A DNA stretch of 64,000 bases from a virus, in the IMG/VR virus record IMGVR_UViG_3300045988_159706, one strand, 5' to 3'. Shown one piece after another: positions 1-64,000 of the stretch. Numbering within the stretch: position 1 is the stretch's first letter; every line of letters begins with the position of its first letter. A program made the translations under genes and the position numbers. The notes beneath the pieces are model-generated. The model ran no database searches. It saw nothing but the letters and a program-made list of their open reading frames with translations, and had not been told where the DNA came from.

Positions 1-123
1 TACTATATAATCCAATTCTGAATTATTCTTCAAGTAATTAATAACTGAATTAGTAGATAACGAGATATCGGCATCAAATGACACCGATATCCCATTACTT
101 AAATTTAATTCAACACATGCCAT
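1..123 (-). CDS. hypothetical protein, N-terminal 41 codons only (gene runs off the left edge)
   Basis: ATG at 121-123, 4 nt after the TAA (128-130) of the preceding gene. Frame is open to position 1 (MACVELNLSNGISVSFDADISL...). Confidence 0.4.
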   Translation of the reverse strand, partial: MACVELNLSNGISVSFDADISLSTNSVINYLKNNSELDYIV

Positions 124-127
124 ATTA

Positions 128-3100
128 TTAGCAACTTTTTATAATTAATAATCCCCTAGTTAATGCCACATTCAGCTTTCTTTCAGATGTTAATTGTTTA
201 GCTGCACCTCTATTTAAAGCTTTGAATCGTTCATTATTTAGCGGGAATACATTTTGAGGTTTTGCTGTTGGCCCTTCATCAAAATCTTCTATATAAGAAT
301 CGTCCATAAATTCATCATCATAGTTTGATTTTCTAACTTGATAAAGTGTTTCAAAATCAGTAGCTAAGGTTTTATCTAACACAAAGTTACGATCATAAGT
401 ATCACCTATAAAATTGAAATATGAATTAATTAATGTATTATTCTTAATTACCTCAGTAAATAATTTACTAAAACTATCTCCTAGGATTTGATTTTTATTT
501 ACAATTAAATTATATAAAAACATATAATCTGCAACTGTATTATTAGGCCAATTATCATCATTTATATTCACAAAGGTCTCTCCAAGATCCTGAGATGTTA
601 CTATATCGTTTGCTATAAGATTAAAGTCTATAAGCATTTTCTCATAATAATCTTGATTGGTTTTTTCAATTAAATTAAACATAGGTTTATAATATCTTAC
701 AAAACCATCACCAGATGCGCTGTATTTTCTATCTGCAATAAGATTATTTAAGAAAAAATTTGTTGGATATTTTAATCTCAAGCTTGGAATTAATGTTTCA
801 TTTACAAAGATAACAAAATTTTTCAAACCTATTGGGCTATTAATAGAACGTAAAATTACATCATTTAAAGGATGTGTTTCTCCCATTCTATCTACTTCCA
901 CATTTGAAGGATATTTAAAATCCAAGGATTTTATAGCTTGCACAATCATATCATCCGTCGCTATACTTCTCAATCTACTTGAAAGGGTACTTTTTGGAAT
1001 AACTAATTGTTTATTAGTCATTAGTTTAGTTCTATTCATTTGCTCAATAATAGCTCTATATTTTCCAGATAAATTACCAATAGCTTTTTCTGCATTAATT
1101 GATAAAAAGTCCATTTCATAAAAATGAGGAGAAGTTTTTAATACATCAAGAACATTTATTGTGGTAGCACACTGTTGAAAAATTTTAATCATATCCTTTG
1201 CATATGATTCGTTAGAAAAGAATTTCAACTTATCAAATATAAATCTTCTTCCGATTATATATTTTCTAACAGTTGGATTACCTCCAAATATTTGATCCTC
1301 TCTAATTTTAGCATTTATTATCCGTTCAATTCCTTGCTCGAAGTTAATACGCTTTGCAACAATAGCTCCAAACTCTGTAGATAATCCCTGATTGACTGAA
1401 AGCTCCCTAGCTAATAATGTTAATTCTCCAGCTCCTTTAAATACTTCTTGATAAAATAATAACTTTTGGTAGGCTTCACTCTTTTTATCTGTAACCTTTA
1501 GTAGTTGATCAATTGCTGTAGTAATACTTACGGAGTCAATATTTTCAAACATATTACCTTTTACCATACTAATAATATTAGTCATAATATCATCAGTAAA
1601 AATCTTAACAATATCATTTAAGTCTGCACCAGTCATAATCATTCAGATAATACCTGGAGCAGTTTCTGAAGTACAGTTAATATTATTAAGAATTGGGTTT
1701 TTAGCATTATCGGTTGCCTGAGATAGTAAACTTGATAAAGTAATTGCTACTGTTCCTGAGTTTGTAAAAAATTCAGAATGGGTTGTACTAAATTCCTTGT
1801 TAATTCCAGGTCATATAATAGTCTTACCGATACGTCTGGCGTTTCCACTACTTATCCAATACTCAATTGCATATTCAGCTTTAATCGCAGATGCTACTAT
1901 ACCAATCACTTCTTTACCCACCTTATTATTACTATTCATCTTTATTTGACTTGTAGAAACAAAAGGAGAGAAATTATCACTTGATTTTGGCGATACTGCT
2001 GCAGCCTTTTCAATAGGTTCTACTGTTGTAGGTAATGTAGCATATCCTATAGTTGAGATATTATGATAGGTATTAAACATATTATTCACCAGATTATTCA
2101 TAAAAACTTTGTCCAAAGTTCTTTTAGGAATTCTGTGTGAGTTATGTCTATTTATTTGAGTTGCCAATTGTCCTCCTAAAGCTTGTAATGCTGCCACTGT
2201 ATAAGTATCCCAAATATATACATCATTAAAAAGATCATTTGAAGATTTTGATTGAACTGGGAACTTAGAAATGTCAATAACAATGTTTTTATTTCTTACT
2301 TTAGCTATTAACCTTCTTAGTCTTGGAGAATTTACTGTTAACTTATCTTCTGCTATATATGCTTCTAATAAATCACTAGTTAAATCAACAAAGTCAGTTA
2401 CTTTATTTGTTCAGCCATTAGGATTATTATCTCCCTCTGCTCCATAATATGGGGTATTCCCAGTATATTGAGCTACAAATACTCCTCTGTTTTCTCCATA
2501 AATTATTTCTGGATCTGGAAGTGGCAACTTTTTCGAAGTTTCTAAATCATTATAGTCCCAGAATAAGGACCACGCTGGGTATACCCCGTCATCAGTTAGC
2601 GCTACACCAAGGTTGTTATTTTTATCCACATCATAATCAGAACCTTGCTCATAAGTTTGATATTTATTTACTAGGCTCACGTTATATGGACTTTGAAATA
2701 TATCTACAATTTCACAAGGCATTGCAAACTGCTCACTTTGCGCTGGAATACGAGCTACAATATATTTTAAGGTTTCCCAAAAAGAATTATACTGTTTATT
2801 AGCTAAATCATTAATAAACTCTTCATTAACTTTAAAGATTTTATTTCTTTTCATTAGCTTATTAACCTCTGGGTTAACATTACCATCATAGCCAGAATAA
2901 AGGCCAGATTGCAAAATATTATCCAAGACTTGTATTGGATTATTTTGGTCCACAATAACTGCAACTTCTGTTCCATTTACCTTGTAAAACTCTATGCCAT
3001 CAATTTTATAAAGGTCTTCACCTCTATCATTAATTCTATAGATGCCTGTATCATCTGTTGGAACTGTAATTTTAGTCTCTTCAGTTAAAAAGTTTTCAAC

Positions 3101-6100
3101 AAAATCTTTATTAAAATAAATAGGTAAATGTGCTCCAGTATTTGACTTTAACACAAACTCTGAAGGTATCATTCCGTCTGGAAATATTACCTTTCTGTTG
3201 ATTAATATGCGCTCTTTAAATCATTCTGGACCTCCTTGCCTGATTTCATCAATACTTACTCCTGCTGGAATATTTAGTACAGATGAATATTTATAAGATG
3301 TACTAATTTCTGAATTAACATAATCAGTACCTAAGATTTCTATTACAGGTAGTTGTTTTCAATCCCCTAAAGGATCATATGCAATAAAACCTCCATTTTT
3401 ATTCAAGACATCAACTCTACCTTCACTAATAGCTTTATATAGCACATTATTCATGAAGGTTCTTGTTGCTTCAGGATCTTTAACTGTATCATACTCTAAA
3501 GCATACCGCAATCCTAATGAGAAAACATTAATTTTTCTATCATAGATCTCTCCATCTTCTCCTTGAATACGAACATTCACAAATACATTACGTCCTTTTA
3601 AATTTCTTGGCTTAACATAGCATTTAGTAACAGTATATAATCCTTCCTGAATTCTTAAGTACTCTTCATATGAATTTAACTCCACAGGGATGGGAACAGA
3701 ACTTGAGATTCCTTCTAAATTATGATACACTCCATCTGCTCCTTTTAGGTAATAAATATTTCCAAATTCTAGAGCCAATGGATCTACAACTTCTTTGTTG
3801 TCAATTTCCTGCAAATGTGTTAAAATTTCTGGTCTTGTAATTAAATCAAGACTATTATATTTTCTCCCAGACTCGTCTTCAAAGATCATAAGAATATCAT
3901 AAGAAGGAACCATAACATCTGCAGAACCAGCATATTTACGTTTGATAAATCCATTAGTATAAATAACTACATCGGATGCAATCTTTCCCATTAAGTTTTC
4001 ATCACTAAATGGAATTGCAATCCCAAGATCATCTAAACTAACTCCAGGATTAGCTTGAATCTTTTCATTAATCTGCTCCATTAATGCTTGAGCTAACCCA
4101 AGAACGTCCACATTATCCTTTAAGAAGGTCTTTACTAAACCTTTTCCAAAAATATCTACAAGTTTACTACGATTATCTATATTATTTACAAATTGCGCAG
4201 ATGTAGATTTGATAAGATTAGCTAAAGAGGTATAAATTTCCTTAGTGATATTCTGTACTAAACCTTTCTGAGCCATAAAGGAAATTAGCTGGGTAGGTTC
4301 ACTAACTTCAGCATCATCAACTGCGTGATCAGCATCAAGCTGGACAGCAGTATTGGAAATATCTAATCCTATAACATGTAATGGTAAAGATTTACCCCTA
4401 AATACACTATTACTTGTAATAGGTAACTGAGCTGATTTATTTGTAGATTCTGTTGGAAAATAATGAATCATTTTCTTCTTTAGAAATTGATCTACATCAG
4501 ATTGGGATAATACAGAACCATCCACACTAGTTTTCACACCAATAGAATTTAACAGATTTAGAACTTGATGTTGAGAAGCTTCTGAGTAAACAAAGGTATC
4601 TCCTCCATATTCATCAGTAACAATTTCCCCAGAAAACTCTGCACCTAATAAGTTATAAACATCCCATAGATTGCTTAATACAACTGGTATATCTATTGTA
4701 GTTGTACCTTCGGCGAGATTTTCTAAATTATAAGTATAATTGTTATCTCCTTGTCATTTTAAGTTAGACACTTTAAATACTTGTAATCCCTTTCCTGGCT
4801 CATTAATTTGATAATATCCCATAATATTTGTTCTCTTACCATTAAAATTTTTGGTAATATCAAACCAACGTCCCCCATAAAAGAAATCAGCTAGAGTATA
4901 AGACTGTCTAAGCATTTCCTTTAACTTAAATCTTCCATGAATATTTTTTAATAGAAATGCATTAGAAATACCAAATGTTGCAGATTTATTTAAAGTGGCG
5001 ACCCCCTTACCTTCAATCATAGAGTGTCCTAATGTTTTTCTAACAATACCTTCTACTTTATAGTCAACTGTAGAATTATCAGATAATCATAAAGTAGTAA
5101 TAGGTGCAAATACAGCTCCATCCCATACATTCATTTCTTGCCCTGCAGATTTATTTAAATCCGCTACTGGGGAGTTGTAATCACTAATTGTTGCATAATT
5201 GGCCGTATTTGGCAAACCTGTTAGAATTCCTCTTTGGTATGCATGTCCTGTTGCACTTAAAGCAACCATACGTTTAGTTGAAGTAACATAAGACTGTTCG
5301 GTATTTTTTGTAAAATCATCAACAGTTAATTCTCCTATTGGTTTACTATATACAGCTAGATTTTTATACTTATGTGCAATAGTACTTCCTACAGTTAGCA
5401 AAATATAATTATAGGATAATAGAGCGTGTGTATAAAAATATTTTTTAACATCATCCTGAGTCATTCCAAATCTATTCTTGAATGCTTCCATGATGTCACC
5501 TGTTCTAAAAATTTCTCTACAGTCTTTTAAAAATAAATTATACTCATTTTCAAAGAAAGAATCTGAGTTTGAAAAAGCTAAATAATATCCATATAGTAGT
5601 CTATTAAACTTAATACCAGAACCTTTAACTTTTTTATAATCAAATTCATTAGAAATTACATAGTTAGTATAATTTTTTGCATTATATTCATCAACTAAAT
5701 TGTTTAAATCATCTTCAGTTACTCCTTTCAATGCAAAATCAATATTGTTTATTCTATCTATATAATTATCAGAAGGAGTTATCTTAAGAATCCTTTCAAA
5801 CAAACTTAAAGAATTCTCTAAGTATTTTGTTTGAATTTCTAGACCTCCAGTTCTAAAGAAATCTGCAATCTCTTTTCAAGAAGCTTGTGCAATACTTTTA
5901 TTCCTACCTTCTCCTAACCCTTCAATAGCTTTAGTAGTATCAAATACTTGATACATAATAGATTTCTTATCAGAAGGAGTAATTCCCTCAATAAGAATCT
6001 CTCCATTATCCTTCATAGATCTATTATAATCCCAACCAATTGCAACTTGCAACTGTTCAGCATCAGTAAAATCCTCTGCTAATCTAAATTTCTTCTTAAT

Positions 6101-7786
6101 TTTAGAAAAAGCATCTAGATGAAGTCGACTTTCTTTATATAAAGTTGGGTTTTTATATAAGAAAGATAGCATTAATGGTGATTCAGAACCAGTTGGGGAA
6201 TTTTCTATTCTATTTTGCAGATTTGCTAAATGTTGATAGAATGTATTGGATAAATTAGCTAAACGATAATTAGGAACTTTATTTCCATCACTTCGGGAAG
6301 TAATACTTTTTATAACCTCAGGATTCTTATCCAGATAATATTTAGCTAAAGCCACTAAATTTGCATCATCTCCATTAATTTTGGCCCCTGTAGTTATTCT
6401 AGTAATTAAAGTAATAATGTCGTTTAATGGTAGATCCTGATTTTTAAATTGAAGAAAATCAAATCCTGTTAAATTTTTAAAATGATATAAAAGGGCTTCT
6501 GTTGTTAATTTTCCAATATCCTGTGGAAGTAATTTTTTACCATTTACTTTTGGAATGCCTTGTTTACTTATAACATAGTCAATGTTATTGGCCATTTGTA
6601 AAGAGACAACACCTTTATTTAGTACATCAGTGCTTGTCGTTCTATTTTCGTCCCAATTATATCTTTGATACGTTTGTTTAACATACTTTAGCATTCCTGC
6701 TAACATTGTATCAAGATAATTTATGCCATCAGATTTGATTATTTTAGAAAAGGATTTTTTATAGGCTTCCACTAAATTAATACTAACCTTTCCACTCTCT
6801 GCCCCAGTTGAATCAAAATATCTAGTTCTTATACTATAAAGAATTTTATCAACATTAGAGTTGATAGTTTCTAATGAATCTGTATAACTAATAATTTCAT
6901 CAACCAATAATCTGGGATTTTCAATAATTTTTCTAAATCTAGTTCAATCACTCCTGGCAATATTATTTAATAGAGTATTAGAAGCCTCATAAAACATTGC
7001 CGCTGTCAGATTCTTTTTAGTTTGTCTGGCAGTTCTTCTTCCATTTTTTGATTGAAATACATCATATAAAGGAGTGCTTTCTATAAGTAATTTTAAAGAG
7101 CCTGAGGTATCATCATATGCAGATCTATCATCTTTTCTTTCTCATCCTGCGACATGATGGTGTCCATCATTAATCTCAAAATTTTCTTCAGTATAATTGT
7201 ACCTAATATAATGATTACTAATTTCAGGGATTAATTCTCTATTATGTAATAACAGAATATACTGATAGTACTCCCTTTTATCAATATTATTTAAATTCTC
7301 TTTAAATGCATCATTAATCCTATTACCATACGTTGCAAAGGTATCCCCAAAGGTATCACTTAAATCACATAAGAGTACTTCTAATGATTTTTGTAATTTT
7401 TCTTTACTATCAATTACTTCATACTCTCCAGTAGCATCATTAAAAATATTTAAGATTAATGAATCACCTACTCTTCTTGCAGCATACTGCATAAAGTCTC
7501 TATATGAAGTAAAATCAAATTGAATTTTTCCATCAGGTGTATTATATGTAAAGTATCCCTTTATAGTTTTATTAATACTTCCTGCATCAACTAGATTTTT
7601 TAAACAATATCTTTTTACATGTTCGGACAATGCTTGTACGAAATCTGGTTCTACACTCATGCCATTCTCAGACAGCTGAGTTAATAATTTAGAATAGATA
7701 TCTGAGTCGTTAAAAAACGACCCAGATGTATCTATATCTAAACTTTTTGCAACGTCAACGATTATTGATTTAATTGTGCAATCCAT
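128..7786 (-). CDS. virion RNA-polymerase-like giant protein, 2552 aa when TGA=Trp
   Basis: One frame from ATG 7784-7786 to TAA 128-130. I walked every gap between listed fragments 128..1642, 1811..2197, 2411..3172, 3359..4537, 4754..5020, 5087..5803, 5876..6907 and 7142..7786. Only TGA interrupts, at 10 sites: 1643, 1811, 2411, 3221, 3359, 4754, 5087, 5876, 6944, 7142. Contains YIVARIPAQSEQF, then about 40 aa, then EQGSDYDVDKN (Asp triad codons 2624-2638). This is the R-x-P plus DxDxD signature of the metal-binding double-psi beta-barrel in crAss-like virion RNAPs (phi14:2 gp66 type). Confidence 0.75.
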
Positions 7787-7789: not shown

Positions 7790-10700
7790 TTAACATTCTT
7801 CTCCTGCAGTTAATATATCTAAAAGTTCTTTAACACTACTTACTAATTGGTATTTGTTTTTCATCTTTTCAAAGATTGCAACATTTTTTCCATTATTCAT
7901 GTAAGCATCCAGTTTTTCTGCAACATCCCTACTAAAAGTAAACGATTTTACTTGATTTCCAAGTTGAAGTTTATATGTTACAGGATTTCCTGATTCTATA
8001 TTTTGTCGTGTTACAAAGATACCATTATTTTCCTGTCTTACAAAATGAACAAACGAATGAACATAATCATTATATTCATCTAATAAATCCATACACTCTT
8101 CAGTAAGGATATCCTCTTCTGGGTTAGATGGTTCCATTACTAAATTTTCTGCAGTATTATTAACCTGTTCCTTTACAGTTTCTACTGCCTCTTGTATTGG
8201 TTCAACTTTGGCTTCTTCAGTAACTTCTGTAAATACTGAGTTTAATCCTTGTTCATAGTCATAATATGACATTACGGACCATCCTCTTTCATATACAAAA
8301 TTATTATCTGCAGTATAATTTAAATTAGTAGGAACATTATTAGTTCTATAAGTTTTATCAAAATCTGTTTGATGATAATTGGCAAAGATCTTAGAATACA
8401 ATTTGAACATTGGCTCTGTATTTATACCCTCCAATAAACTTACAAAACCATCATAATCAGAATATATAGATTTATAAATATCCCAAACTTGATTAACTCT
8501 TAACTCAGTAATAGGGTCATTTCCTGCAAAGATTATTTCTGCAGATTTATCCTCATTTGAAAAATCTACTCTATTCGCAATATCTTGTAAATCTGAAATT
8601 GCAAGCTTAGAAATTCACTCTGGAAGAGGTTTTCCAGACTGTTTTAAAGCTATTAATCTTTGAGTCCATGCAGCAATATTTTTATAGAGCTTATTATGGG
8701 ATTCCTTCGTTCCTATAATTCTAACATCCTCTTTGAATTTATCCTCCCAGTCAGCAGTTGGAGCATAGTTATAATATAGCTGAATTGGTTGTACAGAGAT
8801 TCTAATTCGAGCTTTTCTTATAAATTGTTCCATAATAGCAGGAGACCATTCAGAATACTTTTTCATGTCTCTCACTAATTCTGTTAAAATTCTATAAGTT
8901 TGCTTTAAATCATTTATATATTGATTTATAGAATTATCCAAGGAGACTGCCTTATCGGTATAATTAGACCGCAGTTTAGCAAAAATAGTTACAGCACTTG
9001 CTGTAATCTTTGATACTTCTCTAACCTTTTCATTTCTCTGCTTAAAAGGATTTCCTTCAGAAGTATGAGAATCTCATATATCAGAAGCTACTTTGTACAA
9101 AGCATCTATTTCTGTATATAATTCAGAAATAGAATATTCTCCTCTTTTATCAGTTAATCATTCATCATTAACTCTAATAGGTTTAGTAGATTCAAAGAAT
9201 GAGTATTCAAAATCTGGTGTCCCAGAGCTATAACGATAAGGAGTTCAATACCTTTGATTATCAAATTCCTTATTCATTGGATCAAAGAAAATAGGTGAGT
9301 CTGGAGTGTAAAAATTAAGCTTTTCTGAATCAAATCTATAGTAAGTTGTTTGATTCTGTTTTGCATCCAATTCTTGAATTGCATCCAGTAATTTAGTATC
9401 TCCAGCAACATTTATGCCTTTACCTACTGTTTCTGCATTAGGAAAGATTGCCAAAGTTACTTCCTTATCCCCATCTTTATAAACTAATCTTCTAAAGATT
9501 TTAGCTTTAGATAAATCTTTATTTGGATCAAAATTACCTACTCCCCAAGCATTATCAATACTAGAATCATAAGGAGATACTTTTATTAAAAATTCTCCTG
9601 TATCTTCTACACCGTAAAGATTATAATTTTCTGCTCCAGTTAACTTTAAATATAAATTATTTCTCAAGGCATTTAATTGAGTGGCTGCTATTTTGAAGGC
9701 CTCACTTCGAATATCGGCATCCTCAGTTAAAAATAAATTTATATCCTCAGTATCATTGCCTCTATGATATACTTGTTCTGAATCAACCATTCCTCCTAAA
9801 CGATTAAAGAACGTATGTACTCTAAGCATAGATCTGATTAATGGGACTTCATTAACAGTTAACTGTTTTGTTGGTGCTATATCTTCATTTGGAGCTTCTG
9901 TTGGATTCTCAGTAGCGATATTTAATTCAGGAATTGATAATTTGCTTAGGCTTTCTTTTCTATATTCCTGATAAGTTTTAATAGACTCTTCGTTTATACC
10001 TATACTATAGACATCTTTCCACTCTTTTTGGGTTGTGGTAAATACAGATTGCTTTGAGCTCTTTAATAATCCATGAATTATAGTGGCATTTTTACCTCTA
10101 GTTAAAATTGTATAAACATCCTTTCTACTTGGAATCCCTAAAGGTCCATCCTGGAAATTTAAGTCTCCATTGATTAAGACATAATCAAACTCTTGACCCT
10201 GTACTGCTACTACTTCTGTTTTTAATACAACATTTTTTGGAGGAATTAACCCATTCTTCTTTATGTCATATAAAAGAATTGTACTGTCAGGATGAGCCTT
10301 TGCAAACTCATTTAATGCTTCTTGAGTTAATACTCCAGCATTATTCTTAATGCCAACAACATCAGACTCATTTTCTGCATATTGAAGTTCAAATGTAGTA
10401 CTGTCTAAGTTATATGGGAATTTAATTAATCTTCCTGAGTTCCACTTTCCAATGTTTGTAGTAACTCTTTTAGATTCATATAGACTACTGCCAATAAAAG
10501 TTAGACATCGATCAAAAGAGTCTAGCTCTCCTTTTTCATTACTATATCCAGATTGTAAAATGTCTCCAGTAGTGACAATTTTAAAATTAAGTTGTTTGGC
10601 TAATTCATCCAATAGTAGATACTGTTCACGAGATACATAGGTTCCCTCATCAATAATAATTGTTAAAAAATTATTTTGGAGTATTCCTCTTAAATCATCT

Positions 10701-45637: not shown

Positions 45638-45655
45638 CTTAAACTAAGATTTTAA

Positions 45656-46418: not shown

Positions 46419-46628
46419 GGTTATCAAATAACACGTTTTATAACATCATGCATGGACATTTTTGGAACTCACTTGTCTAATTACGAATTTTCGTTAAAAT
46501 TTTCCCTCAGTATGATACTATATCACTACAAAACGCATTCTCGAATCCCTTTTATGTATATATTCCTCAAAGAACTTGTTTTGCGTTATATGATATAACT
46601 TTAAAACTAAATATGTAGTAGAATAAAC

Positions 46629-46937: not shown

Positions 46938-46980
46938 TAAAAATTCATTTTTTCTATCTCTACAAAATTAGAGATTATAT

Positions 46981-53665: not shown

Positions 53666-54826
53666 TTATTCAATTTCTGATCAAAATATATCAAGCTTAC
53701 CGTCTGTTCCAACTTGGATAGATGAACTTGTTGATACTAATTTAGACATATCTACAGCTAAACCTCTAGAAGTACCTTCACCAGTTACCTTAATAGTATT
53801 ATCTGGACTAGTAATAGATGTAATGCCACCTGCAACAGCAGTTTTAATACTATCACTAAGAGCTTTCATACCTTCAGCAACTGTTTGATCTGCACCAATT
53901 TCAGCACCGCCAGTAATTGCTACTCCTACTTTTATATTGTTACCAGCAACCCTTGCCCTGTTTACTCTAAGTCCACTTTCAGATTTTGCTAATATATTAT
54001 CAGAAACAGGATCAATTTTAACATCAATAACATTCGCTTCTGAAATCTCAACAGCATCACCAGCTGTAAGAGCTTCTTGCTTACCTCCAACAGATGTTTG
54101 TAAATTCGCAATATCAGCCTTATTCGTTCTAATCTGATTTAAATCTGTATCTGAAATTAGACCTGAGCCTTCAACCTTATCAACTTTATTTGCAAGTTGA
54201 TTAGTAACAGTAGTAATCTGTTCTTCTAAAGCTGTATCAGCTGCTTCAAGTTCTGTTTTTGCTGCAGAAATAGCGCCATCTACTTGTGATTTAGTATAGT
54301 AGCCTGAAAGATCAATTGTACCTCCCAGAGGGTCCCAAGCTGCACCATCCCAGGCATAATTTGTACCTGCAGGAGTAGTACCATGAGCAACAACTACATT
54401 CCAAACATCACCTTTCTTATTTCCTTTAGTAGGAAGTTCTTCGTAAGTATCTTTAGTACCTTTGTAGTCAAGAGCTGCAGCTACAGAAGCTTTTAGTTCA
54501 TCTACAAGAGTTTTTAAAGCTTTACCTTGTGCTGCAGAAAGAGCAGCATCAGTTCTATCACTTTCAAGTGAGTTAATAATCTCTACAACTGTGCCAGTTG
54601 CAAGAGGTTCCCAAACTCGGTTAGAACCATCAGCATCAAAGCCTTTTAATACATAAGTGGTTTTATTTTCCTTTACATATACTAAAAGGCCTTCTACTAA
54701 CTGAATAGTAGGCATTGCATCCCGTTCAGCAATTGTAGCCTGAACTGTTCTATTATCTAATGGTAGATTCGCACCTAAGTCAAAACCAGAACCTACCGAA
54801 ATACCTTTACCAAAAAATTCTGCCAT
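53666..54826 (-). CDS. fibre-like protein, 386 aa when TGA=Trp
   Basis: ATG 54824-54826. The frame continues through TGA 53681 for four more codons to TAA 53666-53668 (...KLDIFWSEIE). Motifs SAAQGKALKTLV and IDLSGYYTKSQVDG are shared with other fibre genes. Confidence 0.65.
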
Positions 54827-54828: not shown

Positions 54829-55941
54829 TTAGTTAAAGTTTACATAGTAAGTACTAGGTTGCGACATCTTACCAGATAAATATACTGTATAATCAACCGC
54901 TTGACCATCTAAACCAGTAACCGAAACTGTACTAGTAGTATATGAACTAGTTACATCAAAGTTATTACTGTCTTTAATATTTGAAACCGATCAACCTGCA
55001 GGAGCAGCAAAACAAATATATTGTTCTGAAATTGGTCCAGCTACTTTAATTGTTTTCTTTGCAGAAGTAGTTTTAGTTAATCCTTTAATTACATCTTCTG
55101 TAATTGAAGCTGTAGAAACTAAACCTGAATAAGCAGGAATATATCCTGTTACTGTAACTGCACTTGAATCTACTGATCCTGCAGCTAAAGGAGTACCATA
55201 GTCGTTACCTTTAGAATCTTTAGGTTGAGGACCTTGTGCATGAGCAGCGTGATACTTATATGACATTGAGCCTTTAACTACCTTTGCGGGAAGTTCTTGA
55301 GATGAGCCATATAAAATATACGAATTCTCTGGATCTAAAGCTCCTGCGCGTTTTGCCTGCTCTTTTCCTGCGACTAAAATCTGGCCTTGATTAAATCCAG
55401 TATTAAAATTTGCAGCGGTTGGAGCATTTGCTCCTACTTCCTGAGTATTTGAATAGCCCTTTAAAGAAATAGTTGCAGTTGGAGCTACAAATGTGGGATT
55501 AACTGTTGGGAAGATAAGAGTATCAAAAATTTCATCATAACTCTTACCTGTAAGTTGTGCTACAGTTGTACCTGCGTTAATGCCCCCAAGTTTCTCTACT
55601 GTTGCTACACTAGGATCTAACGAAGATTCATAAGAACCACTTGCTGTAGGATCTAAGCTATCAAGTTTAGCTTTATCTTCTTTAGACATTAAACCATCGA
55701 CTAAAGAACTTGCTTTTACAAAGTCTAAATTCGAAGTGGTTGAATCTGTGTATGTAATCACAATGCCGTTAGCATTCTCATTTAAGGTTACATTAGCTAC
55801 TTTCTTGCTAGAATCACCTCCATACTCGGAGCCATTCAGCATAATTTTATGAGTATCTGTTGTAAAGAAAATGCCATTAGCATGGGTTACAGGATTATAA
55901 GCAGAACTAAGTCCTCTATAAAATTTTACAACACTTGCCAT
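54829..55941 (-). CDS. fibre-like protein, 370 aa when TGA=Trp
   Basis: ATG 55939-55941. The frame continues through TGA 54991 to TAA 54829-54831; extension walked. Contains GLMSKEDKAKLDSL, a motif common in phage fibre proteins. Confidence 0.65.
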
Positions 55942-55951: not shown

Positions 55952-57736
55952 TTAATTAATAACATCATTTCACACCATAGACGATGTATCTTCAATAAGC
56001 TCTTCTAAATTCTGTTTAATGCCATCTACCTCGGCTTTTGTGTAATAGTTAGATAGATCTACAGTTATAGTGCCACTTCCCCATTTCTCCCACAGATATG
56101 TATCTAACATAGTTTCGGCTTTAACCACTATATATTCCTCATATAAGTCATTAACTCCAGTTTGGGAAGCAGGGACTAACCAAATTATGTTTTGTTTTTC
56201 TTTTGTAGGCTCTCCAAGAGCTTCAAAATTATCAACAATTTTAATTGAAAATCCTGAAGCATTGGTTAAATTAGCAAAAGCTTCGGCAAATTTAGATTGA
56301 TCTAAAGCAGTTCCTCCAGCTTCTTTATATGCATGATATACAGCATTTAAATGGTCGAAATCAGCTTTATTTTTGGTATCAACCCAAATCATTTGTTCAG
56401 CATTCTTGTAGGCTTCTTGAATGTCTGCATCATCTAAATGAGAATTTCTAAAAGTGACAGGATCTTCTGGACCAACATGCACAGCATGTTCTCCAGTAAA
56501 TCCTCTAGGTATATAAAAATCCCAAATAGGATCTTTAATTGTACCTACATTTTCAATTTTAGGATCTTCCCATGGTTGTAGCATTTCTACCTTACCAGCA
56601 GTAAGAGTAGCGGCTGCTTTGCCTTTAGTAATTATAGTTGATGGGATTCAGCGATCATATATGATATTTCCGTTCTCATCTTTAATTGGATTTCCATTTT
56701 CATCTGGTGTTCATGTATAATGCCCAGATGAAAGCGTTACCTTAAGATGAGCATCATCGGTAATATCTACATCATCAATACTGACTCCTCGTAGATAGTC
56801 CATATAACAAAGAACTGTCCATTGACTAGGTAGTTCTCCATCATATCCTCATTTAATTGTATCATCTGTAAAATCTCGATACAATTTTAATTGTTTACCT
56901 TTAGGGCCTTGTTCTCCAGTGTCACCTTTGTCACCTTTGTCACCTTTAATGCCCTGAACTCCTTGTTGACCTCTAGGAATAGTAAATCTGAAAGCAGCTT
57001 CAGAAGCGGTTCCGACATTTACGATAGAAGCTTGAGAACCAGGATCTCCAGTAATAACAGAATCTACTCTGATAGTTGCCGCAGTTCCAGCAGGCCCTCT
57101 ATCACCTCGATCTCCCTTATCACCTTTATTTCCTTTTTCCCCTTGAATTCCTTGAACTCCTCTATCACCTTTATCACCTTTATCACCCTTTTCACCTTTC
57201 TCACCCTGAAATCCACGGATACCTTGGTCTCCTTTATCACCTTTATCACCTTTATTTCCTTGGTCTCCTTTATCACCTTTATCGCCCTTTTCACCTTTCT
57301 CTCCTTTTACATACATGGGAGGAATAGTTTGAGAGGGGGCTTCTTCTAAGACCCAGGTAATAAATCCAGTAGACTCATTGTACTCAGGTACGTACACCTG
57401 GCCATTTTCACCAGTTGCACCCGTAGCACCTGAAAATACAAATTCCCAGAAGGGTGAGTCTACACCAGTTGGTTTAGTAGAATCCTCAGGATCATTATAA
57501 AGTAATTTTGGCTCAGATAGACTACTAGACAAGTGACTCTTATGGCAAGCTAATAAAGTTCCTCTATAAGCTACAAAATCTTGAATATAACCATCATTAT
57601 AATAGTTAATTCCTGGTGCCCATCCTTGAGCAAAGTTAAAAGATTTTCCCTTATAAAAGTCTCTTGAATTAGATACTCCATAATATTCTCTTGAATTCTG
57701 AAGGTCAATATCTGGTTGTATATTAATTTTTTTCAT
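55952..57736 (-). CDS. collagen-like tail fibre protein, 594 aa when TGA=Trp
   Basis: ATG 57734-57736 to TAA 55952-55954. Merges 56849..57736 and 55970..56584 through TGAs at 56849, 56711, 56648 and 55970; gap walked. Has two G-X-Y arrays. Its N-terminal ~100 aa are paralogous to gene 57742..60867. Confidence 0.7.
57086..57304 (-). repeat. collagen-like G-X-Y array (about 24 triplets, GDKGDKGDQGNKGDKGDKGDQG...); a second shorter array lies at 56894-56971
   Basis: Periodic GGT/GAT/AAA-type 9-nt units are visible in the DNA. The translation is uninterrupted G-X-Y. Confidence 0.85.
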
Positions 57737-57741: not shown

Positions 57742-60700
57742 TTATATAACTTCGATAACTTTTTGCAAAATTACATTTTTAGTTGAAGAAAACAGTCATC
57801 CTTTATATTCTTTACCAGCAGTTACTACTACAGGATTATTTACTAATATTTCATAGTTTGCATATCAAGTAGCAGGTTTTCCAGGAATTACTGCATTAGG
57901 TAATAATCAGATTTTTAAAGTTATACTTTGTCTTGGTAATACTGCTACATAGCTATAAGACTCTAACATATCAAATCCTGGTCGATAAAATCCTGTAGAA
58001 TCAAATAGTAATGGGATATTACCGTTATTAAATATATCAATTGTATATTTTGATTTAGAACTCATATTATCAAATACAGACGCATCAATATTTAATAGTT
58101 GCACTTTTGATTTTGTAATATTAGATTCATTCATATAAACAGTAATATTCTTTAACCCAGTAAGAGTAACTGTTTGAGTAGTAGAGCTATATGTTAAGTC
58201 CAATACATCCTCATCTGAGCCGCTCATATTGCCATTTACAGAAATATTTTTCGCATATATATTTCCGTCTGAGTCAAAAGAAATATTTCCTGTAGACATA
58301 TGCCCTGTACCAGTTTCAAAATTGAACATAATATTTGGAATAAATGTTCTAACTCCAGGTTTTTCTGGATTTGTACTATTTGCGGGTTCTCCAGGAGTAA
58401 TTGGATTGAAATTTTCATAGTGGGTTGAAATCTCTCCATTTTCATCTACACCTTGTTGACTAAACATATAAGCATCATTAAATACAGCAGAACCAATAAG
58501 AGCGTTAGGAATAATTCCAATTTTGGCATAGAGTGCTTCAAATGCTTCTAACTTAACCCAACTGTTACTTGTATCAGTACTTGGAGATTCATTACTATGT
58601 AATGTTCCTTGCCATGTTCCCACTATATTTAAAACATAATAGTTAGCATCATTAGAATCATATACATAAGGAGTTTTATCTACAGTTCCTTGATATACAG
58701 TATTAACATTATAAATACCTTCAGGATAAATTATTTGTCCTTTAGAACCGTTCTCTCCATTTAACCCATTAGTTCCACTTAATTTAGTGGGAGTACTCCA
58801 GCTACCTTCAATTGTGCCAACTTTATCAGTATTACTTGTATAATTTACTCTGGCTTGAATAAACCAAATATAAGGAGCCTCTTCAGTAGGAGTTGGAACC
58901 GCTAAATTCCAACCTGTCGGTTGTCTTGTCGTTCCAGGAGTACTTGTTCCTCCATAAATTGTTGTAGTTCCTAAACAGTAACGAACTTCGATGCCAATTC
59001 CAGGTAATCCATCAACTCCGTCTTTACCTGCAGGACCAGGATCACCAGTAACTCCAGGTTCTCCTTTTATTTTAGTCCATTTATAGTCAGATGGATCGTC
59101 ACTATCATTTATATTAAAATCTACATATACTCCAATTCAAGCGCCTGGATCTTCTCCATTATTGCTTGTAAAAGTTGTACCTCCATCATTAGAGTATTTA
59201 ATATGTAGATAACTTGTTTTTCCGTCTTCTCCATTAGTACCAGGAATTCCTTGATCGCCCTTTTCTCCTTGAATACCTTCAAATCTTGCCCAAGTATAGT
59301 CAGAAGGATCTGTACTATCTGCTTGAGTAAAATCTACATAAGTTCCAATATATGTACTTGGAGTTTCAGTCATTTGACTTGAAGAAGTTGGATTAGCAAC
59401 AGAAGAATATTTAATATGGAAATATGTGGTTCTTCCGTCTGCTCCTGGAGTTCCAGGAATTCCATCTGTGCCATTTGTTCCATTTTCTCCGCTTATAACA
59501 ACTGGGGTAGTCCAGTTTGTATTTAGAGTATCATCAGGATTAATAGTTGCTGTAGTCATCCAAAGATATCCATCTTTAGATTTTTCAGGAGGAACTATAG
59601 ACCATCCTGAAGGAGTTCTTATTGTTGCATTTAATGTAGGAGGATTTGAATTGCTTGTATTTACAGCAAATCTAAATTCTGTAAATTTGCCATCTTGAGC
59701 TTGGCCATCTCTACCATTAACTGGTATTACTTCTGACCATTCAGTTACAAGCCCTGTCTCCCCATTAACCGTTCCAATACACTGCCACCAGTTTCCACTA
59801 GTTGTAGGATAATCTTCCCATCCAGACGGACTAGGACTATTTCCTGTAGGTTTTGATGGTTTACTATCACTTAATTTATAAACGTATGTTTTCCAATTTG
59901 GTATTACTGCATCCTGTCCCTTTTCTCCTGTCATTTGAACAGGATCTGACCATTCTCCAACAAGAGTAGAATCTCTAAAAGATGCTGTAATTGACCATAT
60001 AATTTCAGAGGATGTATGAACTGGAACCACTGTACTTCATACAGATCCAGGATTCGTATTAGTTTTGTTTACAACAGGAGGAGTATTAACATTACTACTT
60101 TTTGCATACATTAACTTAATACTTAATCCATCCTGACCATCAGAACCGTTTGCTCCATCTTGTCCATTGGTTCCATCCTTACCGTCTTTTCCGTCTTTAC
60201 CATCTGCTCCTTTAGGTAGTCCAAAACTAAATTTGAATATATCTCTCTCTAAAACTACATTAGCATTAGCCTGAGTAGTTGAAGAGACATTTACTACTTC
60301 TGCATCAAAATTAGGAATTTCTCCGCCGCCAGAAATAGTTTTCCATTCAGTATCATAATCAGTATTAGATTTTTTAACTAGAGCTTGCCCAGTAGTACCT
60401 CCTGGAATAATACCTGCTCCAGGATCTCCCTTATCACCTTTAGGACCAGTAACTGAATCACCTTTGTCACCCTTATCCCCTTTGTCACCTTTAGGACCTT
60501 CAGGGCCTTGTTCTCCAGGATCTCCTTTTGGGCCAGCATCACCCTTATCGCCTTTTACTCCTTTTCCATTTGTTCCCATGACAAATTTCCAAAAGATATT
60601 TGGATGAATGCCAACAATAATATCATTTTCAATTATAGGTACAGGCTCATTGGATTCTGATGAAATATGACTTCGTGTACAATACAATAAGCACCCTTTA

Positions 60701-60867
60701 TATGATACAAAATCAATAATGTTTTCATCATTGAAATATCGTGTATTAAGATCCCATGTAGACATCTTAAAAGAAGTTCCTGTATAAAAATCACGAGAAC
60801 TTCTTAATTTATAGTATTCCTCTGAAAGAGCCTTCTCCATAAAAGGATCCTTATTATATTTCTTCAT
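57742..60867 (-). CDS. collagen-like tail fibre protein, 1041 aa when TGA=Trp
   Basis: ATG 60865-60867 to TAA 57742-57744. Merges 60037..60867, 59137..60030 and 57907..58623. The 171-codon stretch 58624-59136 has no stop and no start codon. TGAs at 60037, 59137, 57907, 57865 and 57796. Multiple short G-X-Y arrays. Confidence 0.7.
60415..60576 (-). repeat. collagen-like G-X-Y array (GTNGKGVKGDKGDAGPKGDPGEQGPEGPKGDKGDKGDKGD...); further arrays at about 60124-60222 and scattered through 58740-59960
   Basis: G-X-Y periodicity in the translation and repetitive GGx-rich DNA. Confidence 0.85.
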
Positions 60868-61045
60868 AGTATTGTATTATTTTAATTATTTCATCATTAG
60901 AAGGATTTCCATTCTCGATATAATCAATGGCATTAACTAATTCATTCATTGTAAATAATGTTTTAGTATTAAATTCGTAGCCAATGTTTAAATTTAACAA
61001 TTCATTCGAGAATAACCTATATAGTGTATTATATAGAATTTCCAC
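60854..61045 (-). CDS. hypothetical small protein (63 aa)
   Basis: ATG to TAA ORF that overlaps both neighbours by a few codons. No other support. Confidence 0.4.
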   Translation of the reverse strand: MEILYNTLYRLFSNELLNLNIGYEFNTKTLFTMNELVNAIDYIENGNPSNDEIIKIIQYYEEI

Positions 61046-61805
61046 AGCCGCAATCGTTATTAGAATTATTTAATAAATCTCCGCATAATGAATCACAAGA
61101 AGACATACTATCTAACACTCTCTGAGCCTCAGTTAAATTCCCTATATCCTTTAAATAGTCAAAAACATACATTGCACTTAAAAGAAAATCCCTTCTATTT
61201 CTCAGAGTATTGTCTGTGTCGCATTTATCATAACTACAATGTTTGCAGTTAATAAGTAATAATTGCCGTTGTAAATATACTAAACATCTTTGCAGTTTAC
61301 AAACACTGAATATCTTTTTTACAGGGCAATAGAAAGTTTGTGATGCACCATTATTGTGAACTATTTTGTATGCATCTATATAGTTATCGATTACAATACT
61401 GTTTTTTAGCACCTCTTCATATGAATGCTCATCATCATCTTCAAACTTGCATTTATATAAAGTTTTTCCATCAAAAAATAGTTCATTACTAAGGTTATTA
61501 TAGGTAGTTTCTCCTATTTTAAAATAATCTAAAGTAGGAATTACTAATTTATAGTAACAGTAAGTGCCATCTTTGTCAAGAATAAATTCTGAAGAAAATC
61601 TTGAAAGTAATTGACCTCTCTTGACTACTTCTCTTCTCACCCTGATTGTCCTATCAATGGGAACTCCAGTTTCATTATAACTTAGGAAGTCTAACATGAT
61701 AAAGTTTATCATGTCATCTCCTAAGCTATAATAATCACTGTTATCAATTGCAATTAACTTACAATCAGGTCTGACAATCGTCTGAATAATTAAGCGTTTA
61801 TCCAT
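61029..61805 (-). CDS. hypothetical Cys-rich protein (258 aa)
   Basis: ATG 61803-61805 (TAATG overlap with the portal stop) to TAA 61029-61031. Cys clusters CKHCSYDKCD and SCDSLCG...DCGCG. No TGA. Confidence 0.6.
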   Translation of the reverse strand: MDKRLIIQTIVRPDCKLIAIDNSDYYSLGDDMINFIMLDFLSYNETGVPIDRTIRVRREVVKRGQLLSRFSSEFILDKDGTYCYYKLVIPTLDYFKIGETTYNNLSNELFFDGKTLYKCKFEDDDEHSYEEVLKNSIVIDNYIDAYKIVHNNGASQTFYCPVKKIFSVCKLQRCLVYLQRQLLLINCKHCSYDKCDTDNTLRNRRDFLLSAMYVFDYLKDIGNLTEAQRVLDSMSSCDSLCGDLLNNSNNDCGCGNSI

Positions 61806-64000
61806 TATTCAACTTGTTTTATTTTATCATTATAAGGATTGTTGTCGAACATTTGTGCAACTTGAGCTTGCAATTGTTGTTTTTTAACCTCAATAGATTG
61901 ATCCTGAAAATCTTTATCATTCTTAATCTTTTCATGGTCAAGAGCAACTCTCTGTTGTTCAATTTCAATCTTAGCTTGCTCCATTTGGCTAGCTTGATTT
62001 TGTAATTGAGATAACTGAGACTGCAGTTCTTTATTTTGTTTCAATAGCTCTTGTGCTTGTTGTTCTGTTTGTTGTAACTGCTGTTGAAGTTGCTGAACAA
62101 TAGATTCCTCTTCTTTCTTCATCTTCATTGACTGCTCAACATAACGTTTAAGTTCAGTCATATTTTTTGCAGCTACAATATTAACAATCATTTCGGGATC
62201 AGAATAACCTGCTTTAACTAACTCTGTACTTAAAGCCTTTATAGTTTCTTTATCCTTAAATGTTGCTGTACTATCCTCAATATGGACATCAAAGTCTGTT
62301 ACAGTGTAATGTTCAGGAAGTGCTGAGAATATCTGAGAATATCGATCTCCCAAAATAATAACTCCCTGTAGGCCATTTGGATATACTAATTTAGCAAGAT
62401 TAAGTAAATCATAGTTTACTTCTTTATAGACAGTATCCATGCAATCAAAATACTGCTTAGTTAAAAGACCAGAAGTTGTAACTCCTAATTTAACATTACT
62501 AACAGCATCTCGTTGTTCATATTGTGCAAGCATTTCTGGAAGTACCCCTGTGATAGAGGAGGCTTGCTGTTCAATAGATTGAATGGCTAATTGTATAGCC
62601 TGAATACTTTGTGCTTTAACAGTATCGTCAAATCCATTGAATATTGTATTTAATGGTTGCCCATCTTGAGAAGAGTCAAGAATTCCAACACCATTTTTCT
62701 TATAAGCTAACCATTTTCGGATTCTCTCTGGCAGGCTAACACCAAGAGCAGTTGGAAGGTTAGCTAAGTCTAACCAATCACCCACTGTGCCAGAAGAAGC
62801 AATTAAGTTATCCCTATAAAAAAGTAATAGGTCATATTTATCTTGGAGATTCATAGTATTTAGTACTAAACTAAAAGGATCTCCATTATGATCCAAGAAA
62901 AACATTCCATTTACAGATAACCTACATTTACTTGGATAGTCAGAAGATCTTACTACATTTTCTACTTCTCCTCTAGTAATGTAAATCTCATTTCCAATTT
63001 TAACTCCTTCATGTCTTGTTAAATATCCAGTTTTTTCATCTACTTCAAGCCACTCCACCTCATAAACTGTAATTAAATGAGGATTATAATTTGATAATAG
63101 AGCCTCATCTCCTGGCATTGCAGGGTATGCTTCAAGACCCCCTAAAATACCTGGAGTTAAGTCAGGTCTAGGTAATCCATCAGGAGGAATAGCAGAGGTT
63201 CTTACTAAATAGGTTGTTGTTCTAACATCCCCCATTTTTGGAGCCTCTTTTAGTTTAGCCACCGCCTCAGTAGTTAATTCACTGCGGTATTCATTCAAAA
63301 TCATTTCTCTTGTCATCATCTTACGAATAACTGCTCGTCTAGAATCTGCAAGATAAGGAGAATTTGGATTTCTTTCTATAAATGTATTTAAAGTATTTAA
63401 AGTTTCAAAATTAATATTTTCTCCACTTTCAGTAGGCCTTGTTCTGTAATAACAAGTTCCACTGATAAGCAGATCTGTAAATAAGATTCTCATCTTATTT
63501 TTCATATTAATATTCCTTGATTGCTTTAAATAGCGCAATATATTTTGAGCAGCTATTTCATAGTCTGAAATAAATGTTCTATCTAAATTATCCTGAATAG
63601 TTTTTAGTTCCTTTTCTATAAAAGGATCATTGACAACCTCTTTATTATCTAATAACATAGAAATTATATTATTTTGTAAATATTGATGTAACTTTTCATA
63701 TAATGTTTGATCAATCTTTAATTGCTTTTCTCGCATTATATTTGTTACTGTCAACGAGTCCTTACAGGAAATTTTTAAATCTGGTTCTAACTCAAGATAC
63801 TTTCCAACTAAAACATCAATATGTTTTTTAATTAGTGGAGTGAAGTTTACTGCTGTTGGAGTACCTACTCCATAATTAAATTCAAGACTTTTAAATTGAT
63901 CAGCATCTCGATGACAATGATAGTACTGATAGGCCTTTCTTAACCTAACTTTTTCATATACTAATTCATTAATAGCATCATCTATTAATTGGATTTCTGT
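61805..64000 (-). CDS. portal protein candidate, C-terminal 731 codons (5' end beyond the right edge)
   Basis: The listed ORF 61805..63754 starts at a TTG, but the frame stays open all the way to 64000 (...KAYQYYHCHRDADQFKSLEF...). Large protein at the head of the structural operon with a Gln-rich coiled-coil C-terminus. TAA stop; all Trp are TGG. The portal assignment rests on size and position only. Confidence 0.5.
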   Translation of the reverse strand, partial: TEIQLIDDAINELVYEKVRLRKAYQYYHCHRDADQFKSLEFNYGVGTPTAVNFTPLIKKHIDVLVGKYLELEPDLKISCKDSLTVTNIMREKQLKIDQTLYEKLHQYLQNNIISMLLDNKEVVNDPFIEKELKTIQDNLDRTFISDYEIAAQNILRYLKQSRNINMKNKMRILFTDLLISGTCYYRTRPTESGENINFETLNTLNTFIERNPNSPYLADSRRAVIRKMMTREMILNEYRSELTTEAVAKLKEAPKMGDVRTTTYLVRTSAIPPDGLPRPDLTPGILGGLEAYPAMPGDEALLSNYNPHLITVYEVEWLEVDEKTGYLTRHEGVKIGNEIYITRGEVENVVRSSDYPSKCRLSVNGMFFLDHNGDPFSLVLNTMNLQDKYDLLLFYRDNLIASSGTVGDWLDLANLPTALGVSLPERIRKWLAYKKNGVGILDSSQDGQPLNTIFNGFDDTVKAQSIQAIQLAIQSIEQQASSITGVLPEMLAQYEQRDAVSNVKLGVTTSGLLTKQYFDCMDTVYKEVNYDLLNLAKLVYPNGLQGVIILGDRYSQIFSALPEHYTVTDFDVHIEDSTATFKDKETIKALSTELVKAGYSDPEMIVNIVAAKNMTELKRYVEQSMKMKKEEESIVQQLQQQLQQTEQQAQELLKQNKELQSQLSQLQNQASQMEQAKIEIEQQRVALDHEKIKNDKDFQDQSIEVKKQQLQAQVAQMFDNNPYNDKIKQVE

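Follow-up and report, generated by a model that had tools for sequence, protein, structure and literature searches.

Evidence for UGA decoding as tryptophan in the late operon of a Zeta-group crAss-like gut phage, with a candidate suppressor tRNA in near-identical genomes

Background

Zeta-group crAss-like phages have genomes 145-192 kb long that carry many introns and inteins, and the branches of the group differ in their code, with TAG reassigned in some, TGA in others and the standard code retained in the rest (Yutin 2021, PMC7886860). The opal-suppressing Zeta genomes have been described as 173-177 kb in length, with 30-33% GC and 18-25 tRNAs (Babkin/Tikunov 2025, PMC12386605). Among code-4 phages a TGA suppressor was detected at a rate of 35% (Borges 2021, bioRxiv 10.1101/2021.08.26.457843), and undetected suppressors are flagged as an open point in all three studies (PMC7886860, bioRxiv 10.1101/2021.08.26.457843, PMC12386605). 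A temporal model has also been proposed in which stop-codon recoding acts as a timer for late or lytic genes (bioRxiv 10.1101/2021.08.26.457843). Here we analyze a 64,000-nucleotide stretch of viral DNA, IMG/VR record IMGVR_UViG_3300045988_159706 (the whole stretch is referred to as the window), together with a tRNA bearing a UCA anticodon that is encoded in near-identical genomes. We estimate a probability of about 85% that the window represents the late operon, with the virion and packaging genes, of a human gut crAss-like phage of the Zeta group in which UGA is decoded as tryptophan.

Results and discussion

Reading frames and stop codons

The minus strand carries every gene and every long open frame of the window, whose GC content is 32.5%. 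When only TAA and TAG were taken as stops (translation table 4), stop-to-stop frames of at least 100 codons on this strand totaled about 63.3 kb, with some overlap, and the longest had 2553 codons; under the standard code (table 11) frames defined in the same way totaled 56.8 kb and the longest had 1368 codons. Merging the frames across TGA gave 34 large genes comprising 20,741 codons, within which there are 78 in-frame TGAs and not a single TAA or TAG. This lack of TAA and TAG is not due to chance, because the off-frames of the same stretches are rich in all stops (TAA 799 and 1439, TAG 599 and 469, TGA 182 and 1193 in off-frames 1 and 2, respectively). With an additional gene of 63 amino acids (aa) at 60854-61045 the gene count becomes 35, and 31 of these end in TAA, four in TAG and none in TGA. 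The total of 78 depends on the use of a GTG start for the gene at 42923-44737, whose N-terminal part is conserved in relatives.

TGG remains the majority tryptophan codon with 142 occurrences, and the 78 TGAs are spread over 19 genes, leaving 15 of the 34 without any. The TGA:TGG ratio is heterogeneous among the genes of the window (permutation p = 0.0002). It is 7:1 in g08 and 16:8 in g11 (genes are numbered from the left end of the window, as detailed below), while the head-gene block (36383-42827 plus 44811-46345, minus strand), made up of the genes for the capsid protein, a scaffold-like protein and their neighbors, has no TGA against 17 TGGs.

The amino acid encoded by TGA

The capsid protein was used as a query to collect 68 related IMG/VR loci, most of which are TGA-recoded and a few more distant ones of which use the standard code. 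Window proteins with an X at each TGA were then aligned by tblastn, the subject codon opposite each X was read, and identical contexts were collapsed. Opposite the TGAs of the window we found TGA 110 times, TGG 43 times, AAT 16 times, TAT 14 times and the four glycine codons together four times. With TGA itself left out, the residues were W 34, N 20, Y 17, S 8, G 4 and C 1, and at the well-aligned sites W 23, Y 9, S 1 and G 0. The reverse test, reading the codons opposite the TGGs of the window, yielded TGG 189, TGA 66 and other codons 44. A likelihood ranking, in which all 20 amino acids were tried for X with an empirical substitution table derived from the same alignments, placed tryptophan at the top both for all sites (-605, against -627 for the runner-up) and for the well-aligned sites (-80.5, against -147.6 for tyrosine), with glycine, serine and cysteine outside the top six candidates. 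In the TerL-like gene beside the window, which is 47% identical to that of the standard-code genome MT835470, the five TGAs face W, W, Y, Y and N. Homology continues across the TGA sites. Because the codon tabulation, the likelihood ranking, the reverse TGG test and the TerL-like alignment all agree, TGA is, as judged from these alignments, a codon for tryptophan.

A first-pass annotation of the window, made from the letters alone, had claimed that TGA is a sense codon for tryptophan across the whole module and that only TAA and TAG terminate genes. Its counts were reproduced: we obtained the same 78 in-frame TGAs, the same 35 genes (34 large and the 63-aa gene) and the same terminators, and the coordinates and TGA counts of its example genes (128-7786, 2552 aa, 10 TGAs; 7790-15262, 2490 aa, 9; 30985-34698, 1237 aa, 16) are right, as are its remarks that TGG is still in use and that many genes are free of TGA. 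The assignment to tryptophan also held, TGG being the top alternative codon (43, the next having 16) and W or Y standing at four of the five TerL-like sites, and the alignments do not stop at the TGAs.

Identity and relatives of the phage

By its genome size, code switching and gene content, compared with published descriptions, the phage is assigned to the Zeta group of crAss-like phages (Crassvirales; proposed family "Echekviridae"). The structural block is of crAss type, with a portal, a major capsid protein and a TerL-like gene beside the portal; the portal matches PDB 7qog (crAss001 gp20) with an E value of 1e-12, and the full gene matches Pfam P22_portal. IMG/VR contigs of the relatives reach 178 kb and carry about 25 tRNAs and a split tRNA, and a GIY-YIG endonuclease gene lies in the window itself. 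A near-identity DNA search with 24 kb of the window found no match among GenBank phages. The capsid protein, searched by tblastn against the searchable GenBank phage collection, matched only MT835470 and MT835492 (54% and 48% identity, respectively), two unannotated human-faecal genomes with the same gene order. The code differs between these sister genomes, MT835470 being standard and MT835492 TAG-recoded. Code 4 has already been applied to these genes in some public assemblies, and in human gut data the phage is very common.

Several features of the relatives were recorded along the way. ARAGORN finds five tRNAs in MT835492.1 (L004-L006) and no CUA suppressor, despite the TAG recoding of that genome. 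In relatives L056-L064 the capsid match is split over about 2 kb, versus 1.4 kb, which fits the intron-split capsid genes reported for the Zeta group (Yutin 2021). The contig L079 (ENA ERZ28593478 scaffold_65) is 280,302 bp long, compared with about 178 kb for the other long contigs; a concatemer, a mis-join and a larger relative are all conceivable.

TGA use along the genome

The genome was followed beyond the window by means of exact-match contigs and concatenated two-protein queries that extended both frontiers, and this walk covered almost the whole genome of near-identical relatives, leaving out about 7 kb between the tRNA and replication blocks. The closest relatives are contigs 134022, 142240 and 158902, with 97-98% identity over 17-19 kb. 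The late operon extends beyond the window both ways: downstream of g01 there are two genes, one of 459 aa with 2 TGAs and one of 1606 aa with 11, and upstream of the portal the exact-match contigs carry the TerL-like gene with its 5 TGAs. Running toward the late operon on the opposite strand is a long block that contains replication and nucleotide-metabolism genes, followed by about 25 tRNA genes along with ABC-transporter-like and NAD-salvage genes. TGA makes up 35-54% of the tryptophan codons in the late blocks (3.7-6.3 TGA per 1000 codons), 28% in the replication block (4.5 per 1000) and 9% in the early, tRNA-containing block (1.2 per 1000), where 9 TGAs were counted against 89 TGGs and 24 of 30 genes are TGA-free. 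One gene of the tRNA block may actually end at TGA, because its only TGA precedes a TAA by three codons.

A tRNA with a UCA anticodon

ARAGORN found no tRNA gene in the window, nor any in the structural loci and the first walks of the relatives. On the first stretches of the tRNA block its calls included tRNA-Trp(CCA) and a number of tRNAs with odd loops, and none had a UCA anticodon, in agreement with published entries of the type "opal, no suppressor tRNA". Past tRNA-Leu(UAG), outside the window and in the near-identical genomes, it called a 91-nt "tRNA-SeC(tca)". This GC-rich allele (61.5% GC) has a 7-bp acceptor stem, the discriminator G73, a 6-bp anticodon stem with the loop CUUCAAA, a variable arm of about 26 nt and the T loop AUCGUUA. 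Its 3' part is present in 12 IMG/VR contigs, including the closest relatives 134022 and 158902, and an exact-match scan with that part gave no hit among 185,579 bacterial and archaeal genomes. The copies are intact in 11 of the 12 contigs, and in two of them a G-C pair of the anticodon stem is replaced by A-U, a compensatory change. In contig 154597 an AT-rich insertion of 600 nt breaks the tRNA precisely at the junction of U34 and C35; the open reading frame of the insertion matches Pfam PF11645 PDDEXK_5 (E value 1.5e-10) and has an in-frame TGA at its beginning. The insertion is intron-like and, by this match, carries a PD-(D/E)XK homing endonuclease gene.

A second allele occupies the same locus in L260 and L269. 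Its 5' half and its acceptor stem are tRNA-Trp-like, A1 pairing with U72, and its D and T arms are canonical. The same kind of insertion splits it after U34; when joined by hand, the halves form a clean five-arm cloverleaf with the loop CUUCAAA and a long variable arm. Compensatory changes affect 8 of the 26 predicted pairs when the three sequence variants of the UCA tRNA are compared. The folding z-scores of both alleles are about -1 and not significant, and a regular-expression scan for YUUCAR loops returned only chance hits and the antisense of tRNA-Ser(UGA). The variable-arm loop of the second allele (L260:18999-19700; L269:19786 onward) reads CUCCAAA, which is the anticodon loop of the phage tRNA-Trp(CCA); purely as speculation, this could be a partial duplication or a mimic for synthetase recognition. 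A shortened anticodon stem is known from the tRNA-Trp of Blastocrithidia, and such a stem was ruled out for the phage tRNA-Trp(CCA), in which it measures 5 bp.

We see a slightly better than even chance that the "missing" opal suppressor of this lineage is this non-canonical UCA tRNA with its variable arm of about 26 nt, split after U34 in part of the population by a TGA-recoded, endonuclease-bearing insertion. With its atypical structure, and split as it sometimes is, the tRNA may go unnoticed in standard scans or be labeled tRNA-SeC, which plausibly explains why sister genomes have been listed as opal without a suppressor tRNA. We did not find a long-variable-arm UCA tRNA with two alleles, sometimes split, described in PMC7886860, bioRxiv 10.1101/2021.08.26.457843 or PMC12386605.

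Probable host and proposed mechanism of suppression

Upstream of 33 starts, Shine-Dalgarno-like motifs do not exceed the background, and there is an A-rich stretch at positions -11 to -14. Starts that lack a Shine-Dalgarno motif and have an A-rich upstream region are the pattern of Bacteroidota and not of Bacillota or Mollicutes. Among bacterial proteins, the closest relative of a substrate-binding protein of the phage (ABC-like, with an OmpA-like C-terminal domain) comes from a metagenome-assembled genome of Tannerellaceae, with 61% identity, on a 5-kb contig. The iPHoP predictions published for sister opal genomes are Holdemanella or Faecalibacillus, or none (PMC12386605). Since these published predictions are mixed, the host is one that we infer.

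In the mechanism that we propose, the UCA tRNA would be made, spliced where needed, and charged by the tryptophanyl-tRNA synthetase (TrpRS) of the host. The charged tRNA would then out-compete release factor 2, so that the replication genes (28% TGA) and the late genes (35-54%) would be translated in full. A suppression less efficient than ordinary decoding fits these data, because the most abundant head proteins avoid TGA. Control of suppression by the phage in a standard-code host is supported by the UCA alleles, the TGA-poor tRNA block (9%), the codes of the sister genomes, the lack of Shine-Dalgarno motifs and the Tannerellaceae-related gene, the host and the amino acid charged to the tRNA being deduced. 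The first-pass annotation had likewise favored phage-controlled suppression over a native code-4 host, from the continued use of TGG, the many genes without TGA and starts without Shine-Dalgarno motifs, and these grounds stood. Its likening of the phage to crAss-like phages was right as well: the portal matches crAss001 gp20, and the genome size, the number of introns and the switching of codes are as expected for the Zeta group. The UCA-anticodon tRNA for which it had pointed to the rest of the genome is present in near-identical contigs and not in the window.

Certain observations weigh against this account. The published iPHoP hosts of the sister opal genomes are Holdemanella or Faecalibacillus (PMC12386605), and the tRNA lies outside the window, to which it is linked through 97-98% identical contigs from other samples. 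The Rfam tRNA and tRNA-Sec models give the GC-rich allele no score, and its T loop AUCGUUA is non-canonical. No Rfam group I intron model matches the insertion, and therefore its intron class and self-splicing are only presumed. A long variable arm is a class-II feature, as in the tRNAs for Ser, Leu, Tyr and Sec, so that charging of the UCA tRNA by seryl-tRNA synthetase (SerRS) is conceivable. The TGA density of the replication genes is like that of the late genes, and the recoding therefore makes no clean divide between late and early. Finally, no release-factor or TrpRS gene was seen in the fetched parts of the relatives' genome (about 7 kb between the tRNA and replication blocks being unread), and a scan for the GGQ release-factor motif gave nothing convincing.

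Alternative explanations

That the TGAs are errors of assembly or sequencing, or true stops in pseudogenes or in many short genes, is refuted here and has a negligible probability. All that speaks for it is the splitting of these genes by standard-code gene callers (loci L079 and L080), while the same or near-identical sequence recurs in independent assemblies (ENA, Logan, NCBI, IMG/VR), the sites are kept as TGA or TGG across diverged relatives, 20,741 codons contain no TAA or TAG, and homology spans the TGAs. We also regard it as very unlikely that TGA encodes another amino acid, be it glycine as in code 25, serine delivered by a long-variable-arm tRNA charged by SerRS, or selenocysteine or cysteine. 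Phages with code 25 do exist, namely those of Absconditabacteria and Gracilibacteria (Borges 2021), and the long variable arm of the UCA tRNA is class-II-like, with ARAGORN labeling the molecule tRNA-SeC. Against this, glycine stands opposite TGA in just 4 of 168 cases overall and in none of 44 at well-aligned sites, and serine and cysteine are rare there as well, all three falling outside the six best candidates by likelihood. Selenocysteine would in addition be an odd fit to 78 sites in 19 genes, and cysteine faces a TGA only once, although selenocysteine insertion sequence (SECIS) elements were not searched for. The Trp-like allele of the UCA tRNA has A1-U72 and G73, which we take to be identity elements for TrpRS.

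A host that natively uses code 4, resembling Mollicutes, with a phage that simply mirrors it and drives no suppression of its own, is about as improbable as another amino acid. The GC content of 32.5% is low, genes of the window never end in TGA, the replication genes contain TGA too, and the host predictions for sister genomes fall in Erysipelotrichaceae, a Mollicutes-related lineage (PMC12386605). From such a host one would expect even use of TGA and host-type Shine-Dalgarno motifs, and what we find is 9% TGA in one block versus 28-54% elsewhere and no Shine-Dalgarno enrichment, unlike Mollicutes and Bacillota. The tRNA block is nearly TGA-free (9 against 89 TGG, with none in 24 of 30 genes) and one of its genes probably ends at TGA, the phage has a UCA tRNA of its own, TGG is still the majority tryptophan codon, and relatives with capsids 48-54% identical and the same gene order are standard-code or TAG-recoded. 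The cultured crAss-like phages, moreover, all infect Bacteroidota, and this phage is very common in the human gut. Somewhat less improbable, yet still unlikely, is that a tRNA-Trp(CCA) encoded by the phage or the host reads UGA by C-A wobble, as the Hirsh suppressor does, and that the UCA "tRNA" is a non-functional relic. A tRNA-Trp(CCA) with a U11-A24 pair and G73 is present in every fetched genome of the clade, Rfam does not recognize the GC-rich UCA allele, and several sister genomes are listed without a suppressor tRNA (PMC12386605). A relic would hardly be kept at one locus in 12 contigs with compensatory stem changes, however, nor be accompanied at that locus by a second, canonical Trp-like UCA allele. 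The anticodon stem of the tRNA-Trp(CCA) is an ordinary one of 5 bp, and near-cognate reading is inefficient, so that a gene with 16 TGAs would yield almost no full-length product.

Gene content of the window

The large genes are numbered g01 to g34 from the left end of the window; all lie on the minus strand, and all end in TAA except g22 to g25. g01 (128..7786, 2552 aa, 10 TGAs) encodes a giant protein in which a DYDVD (DxDxD) motif was read directly from the sequence; its homology to MT835470 and MT835492 is weak, and it is a candidate for a crAss-type RNA-polymerase-like protein. Beside it lie g02 (7790..15262, 2490 aa, 9 TGAs), g03 (15268..17142, 624 aa, no TGA), g04 (17142..21599, 1485 aa, 6 TGAs) and g05 (21679..22020, 113 aa, no TGA). 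g06 (22153..22932, 259 aa) encodes a GIY-YIG homing endonuclease (PHROG 314, 7168, 5123), a mobile element within the late operon that is itself TGA-recoded, with 2 TGAs in frame. It is succeeded by g07 (22936..23553, 205 aa, no TGA), by g08 (23553..24971), which has at most 472 aa, an uncertain start (TTG or a later ATG) and 7 TGAs against 1 TGG, and by g09 (24998..26206, 402 aa, 1 TGA) and g10 (26199..31010, 1603 aa, 2 TGAs). The heaviest recoding of all genes is that of g11 (30985..34698, 1237 aa), with 16 TGAs against 8 TGGs. Then come g12 (34701..35249, 182 aa, 2 TGAs), g13 (35249..35752, 167 aa, 1 TGA) and g14 (35694..36383, 229 aa, 3 TGAs), in which all three sites switch between TGA and TGG among relatives.

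The next six genes are free of TGA: g15 (36383..37051, 222 aa), g16 (37125..38384, 419 aa), g17 (38414..39355, 313 aa), g18 (39370..40233, 287 aa), the major capsid protein gene g19 (40329..41744, 471 aa, 6 TGGs; PHROG 11589) and g20 (41766..42827, 353 aa), whose product is acidic and scaffold-like. g21 (42923..44737) has 604 aa from its GTG start and 3 TGAs. Immediately upstream of that start there is a terminator-like hairpin at about 44745-44800 on the minus strand, GGAAAGGAATG...CATTCCTTTC followed by T7, which suggests a possible transcript boundary within the late operon. The only four TAG-terminated genes of the window are all adjacent (44811-46967, minus strand): g22 (44811..45188, 125 aa, no TGA), g23 (45173..45637, 154 aa, no TGA), which has a TAA two codons further on, g24 (45656..46345, an open frame of 229 codons with an uncertain start and no TGA) and g25 (46629..46937, 102 aa), the single TGA of which faces TGA five times and TGG five times in relatives. 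Between 46091 and 46628 on the minus strand the frame is open with no obvious start codon.

Three fibre-like proteins are encoded by g26 (47046..49286, 746 aa, 1 TGA), g27 (49306..51627, 773 aa, 2 TGAs) and g28 (51714..53600, 628 aa, 1 TGA), and a phage fibre repeat is found in g29 (53666..54826, 386 aa, 1 TGA). g30 (54829..55941, 370 aa, 1 TGA) is succeeded by two genes with collagen-like repeats, g31 (55952..57736, 594 aa, 4 TGAs) and g32 (57742..60867, 1041 aa, 5 TGAs). The 63-aa gene (60854..61045, no TGA, TAA) is called in public assemblies. g33 (61029..61805, 258 aa, no TGA) encodes a cysteine-rich protein, an identical copy of which is present in 456 blocks of the public assembly collection, and the portal gene g34 (61805..64000, no TGA; PHROG 6547) has its N-terminus cut by the end of the window. 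In PHROG scans of 20 proteins, no names were obtained beyond those of the portal, the capsid protein and the homing endonuclease; Pfam gave no match for the TerL-like protein, g08 or g11, and the capsid protein had no PDB match.

Other features of the tRNA block

The ABC-transporter-like set in the TGA-poor block (L170:16478-19681; L256:17934-20417) consists of the 508-aa substrate-binding protein with the OmpA-like C-terminal domain and of a permease and an ATPase of 278 aa each, and after it come NAD-salvage-like genes (nicotinamidase-like, NAMPT-like and NAD synthetase-like); the functions of both sets were judged by eye from the sequence. In the same phage lineage a Pistol ribozyme, scoring 73 bits with Rfam RF02679 (gathering score 34.5), is located at L170:11045-11115 on the plus strand, just upstream of the first tRNA of the block. 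Between tRNA-Trp(CCA) and tRNA-Pro there is a YrlA-like (bacterial Y-RNA-like) element (L256:6990-7115, plus strand) in which the long helix AAAGTCTCTT/AAGAGACTTT encloses T and D arms and an acceptor-like stem that is closed; it scores 39.9 bits with Rfam RF02553, under the gathering score of 69. Three tRNA-like genes (L170:13437-13510; L256:12610-12682; L256:8938-9018) have odd anticodon loops of 6 nt (CUGAGG), 8 nt (GUGUGUUG) and 13 nt, and all three pass the Rfam tRNA gathering score with 39-48 bits. In relatives, ARAGORN calls the anticodon of the gene with the 13-nt loop as CUA.

Significance and comparison with known systems

For annotation, the practical consequence is that the standard code breaks the late operon into about 75 fragments, so that annotation overlooks the giant proteins as well as the TerL-like and tail genes. 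Beyond the recoding itself, the possible interest lies in the mechanism, which would offer a concrete reason for the apparent absence of a suppressor in this lineage. If it is true, the reading of the phage's own late genes depends on a spliced and structurally unusual tRNA, and the low rate of TGA-suppressor detection (35% in Borges 2021; blank entries in Babkin 2025) is in part a detection artefact. Both the dependence on the spliced phage tRNA and the synthetase that charges the UCA tRNA are directly testable.

The closest parallel to the split tRNA is provided by tRNA group I introns with PD-(D/E)XK endonucleases, such as those of the cyanobacterial tRNA-Leu(UAA) and of tRNA-fMet (I-Ssp6803I), which also insert in the anticodon loop and in which intact and interrupted alleles also coexist. 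The intron of tRNA-Leu(UAA) lies between positions 34 and 35, as does the insertion in the phage UCA tRNA, and PDDEXK_5 is presumably the I-Ssp6803I family. Here, unlike in these introns, it is a putative opal-suppressor tRNA of a phage that is interrupted, none of the group I models in Rfam matches, and the endonuclease reading frame is TGA-recoded. UGA is likewise a sense codon, and a tRNA with a UCA anticodon is likewise present, in code 4 (Mycoplasmatales, Entomoplasmatales) and code 25 (Absconditabacteria, Gracilibacteria), whereas the recoding described here is the phage's own, is uneven along the genome, leaves TGG as the majority tryptophan codon and excludes glycine.

The timer model, associated with Ivanova et al. 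2014 as well as with Borges et al., shares with this phage a standard-code-compatible early block with the suppressor tRNA (here the candidate UCA tRNA), recoded codons concentrated downstream and a predicted standard-code host. In contrast to it, the replication genes here are recoded almost as densely as the late genes (4.5 and 3.7 TGA per 1000 codons, respectively), and the most abundant head proteins are TGA-free; the "code-change module" of the Jade phages, with release factor 1 or TrpRS, was not seen in the fetched parts of the genome.

Opal recoding and code switching in the Zeta group are already known (PMC7886860; bioRxiv 10.1101/2021.08.26.457843; PMC12386605), as the same recoding, phage-encoded suppressors and standard-code-compatible early genes have all been published. 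By published description, the Zeta opal phages (3075_90106, ctddo16, ctvkg4, ctPTU4, c815351, Lera, ct1yV3) also have genomes of about 150-180 kb with 30-33% GC, a long one-strand late operon with about 18-25 tRNA genes in an opposite block, and TGA inside TerL, structural and polymerase-like genes that translation table 4 restores. Their neighboring lineages are likewise TAG-recoded or standard, and they too have many homing endonucleases and introns, so that the window itself shows no essential difference from them. Of the five published genomes that match in size and GC class, four are tabulated without a suppressor tRNA; in the present lineage ARAGORN finds a long-variable-arm UCA tRNA that is sometimes split.

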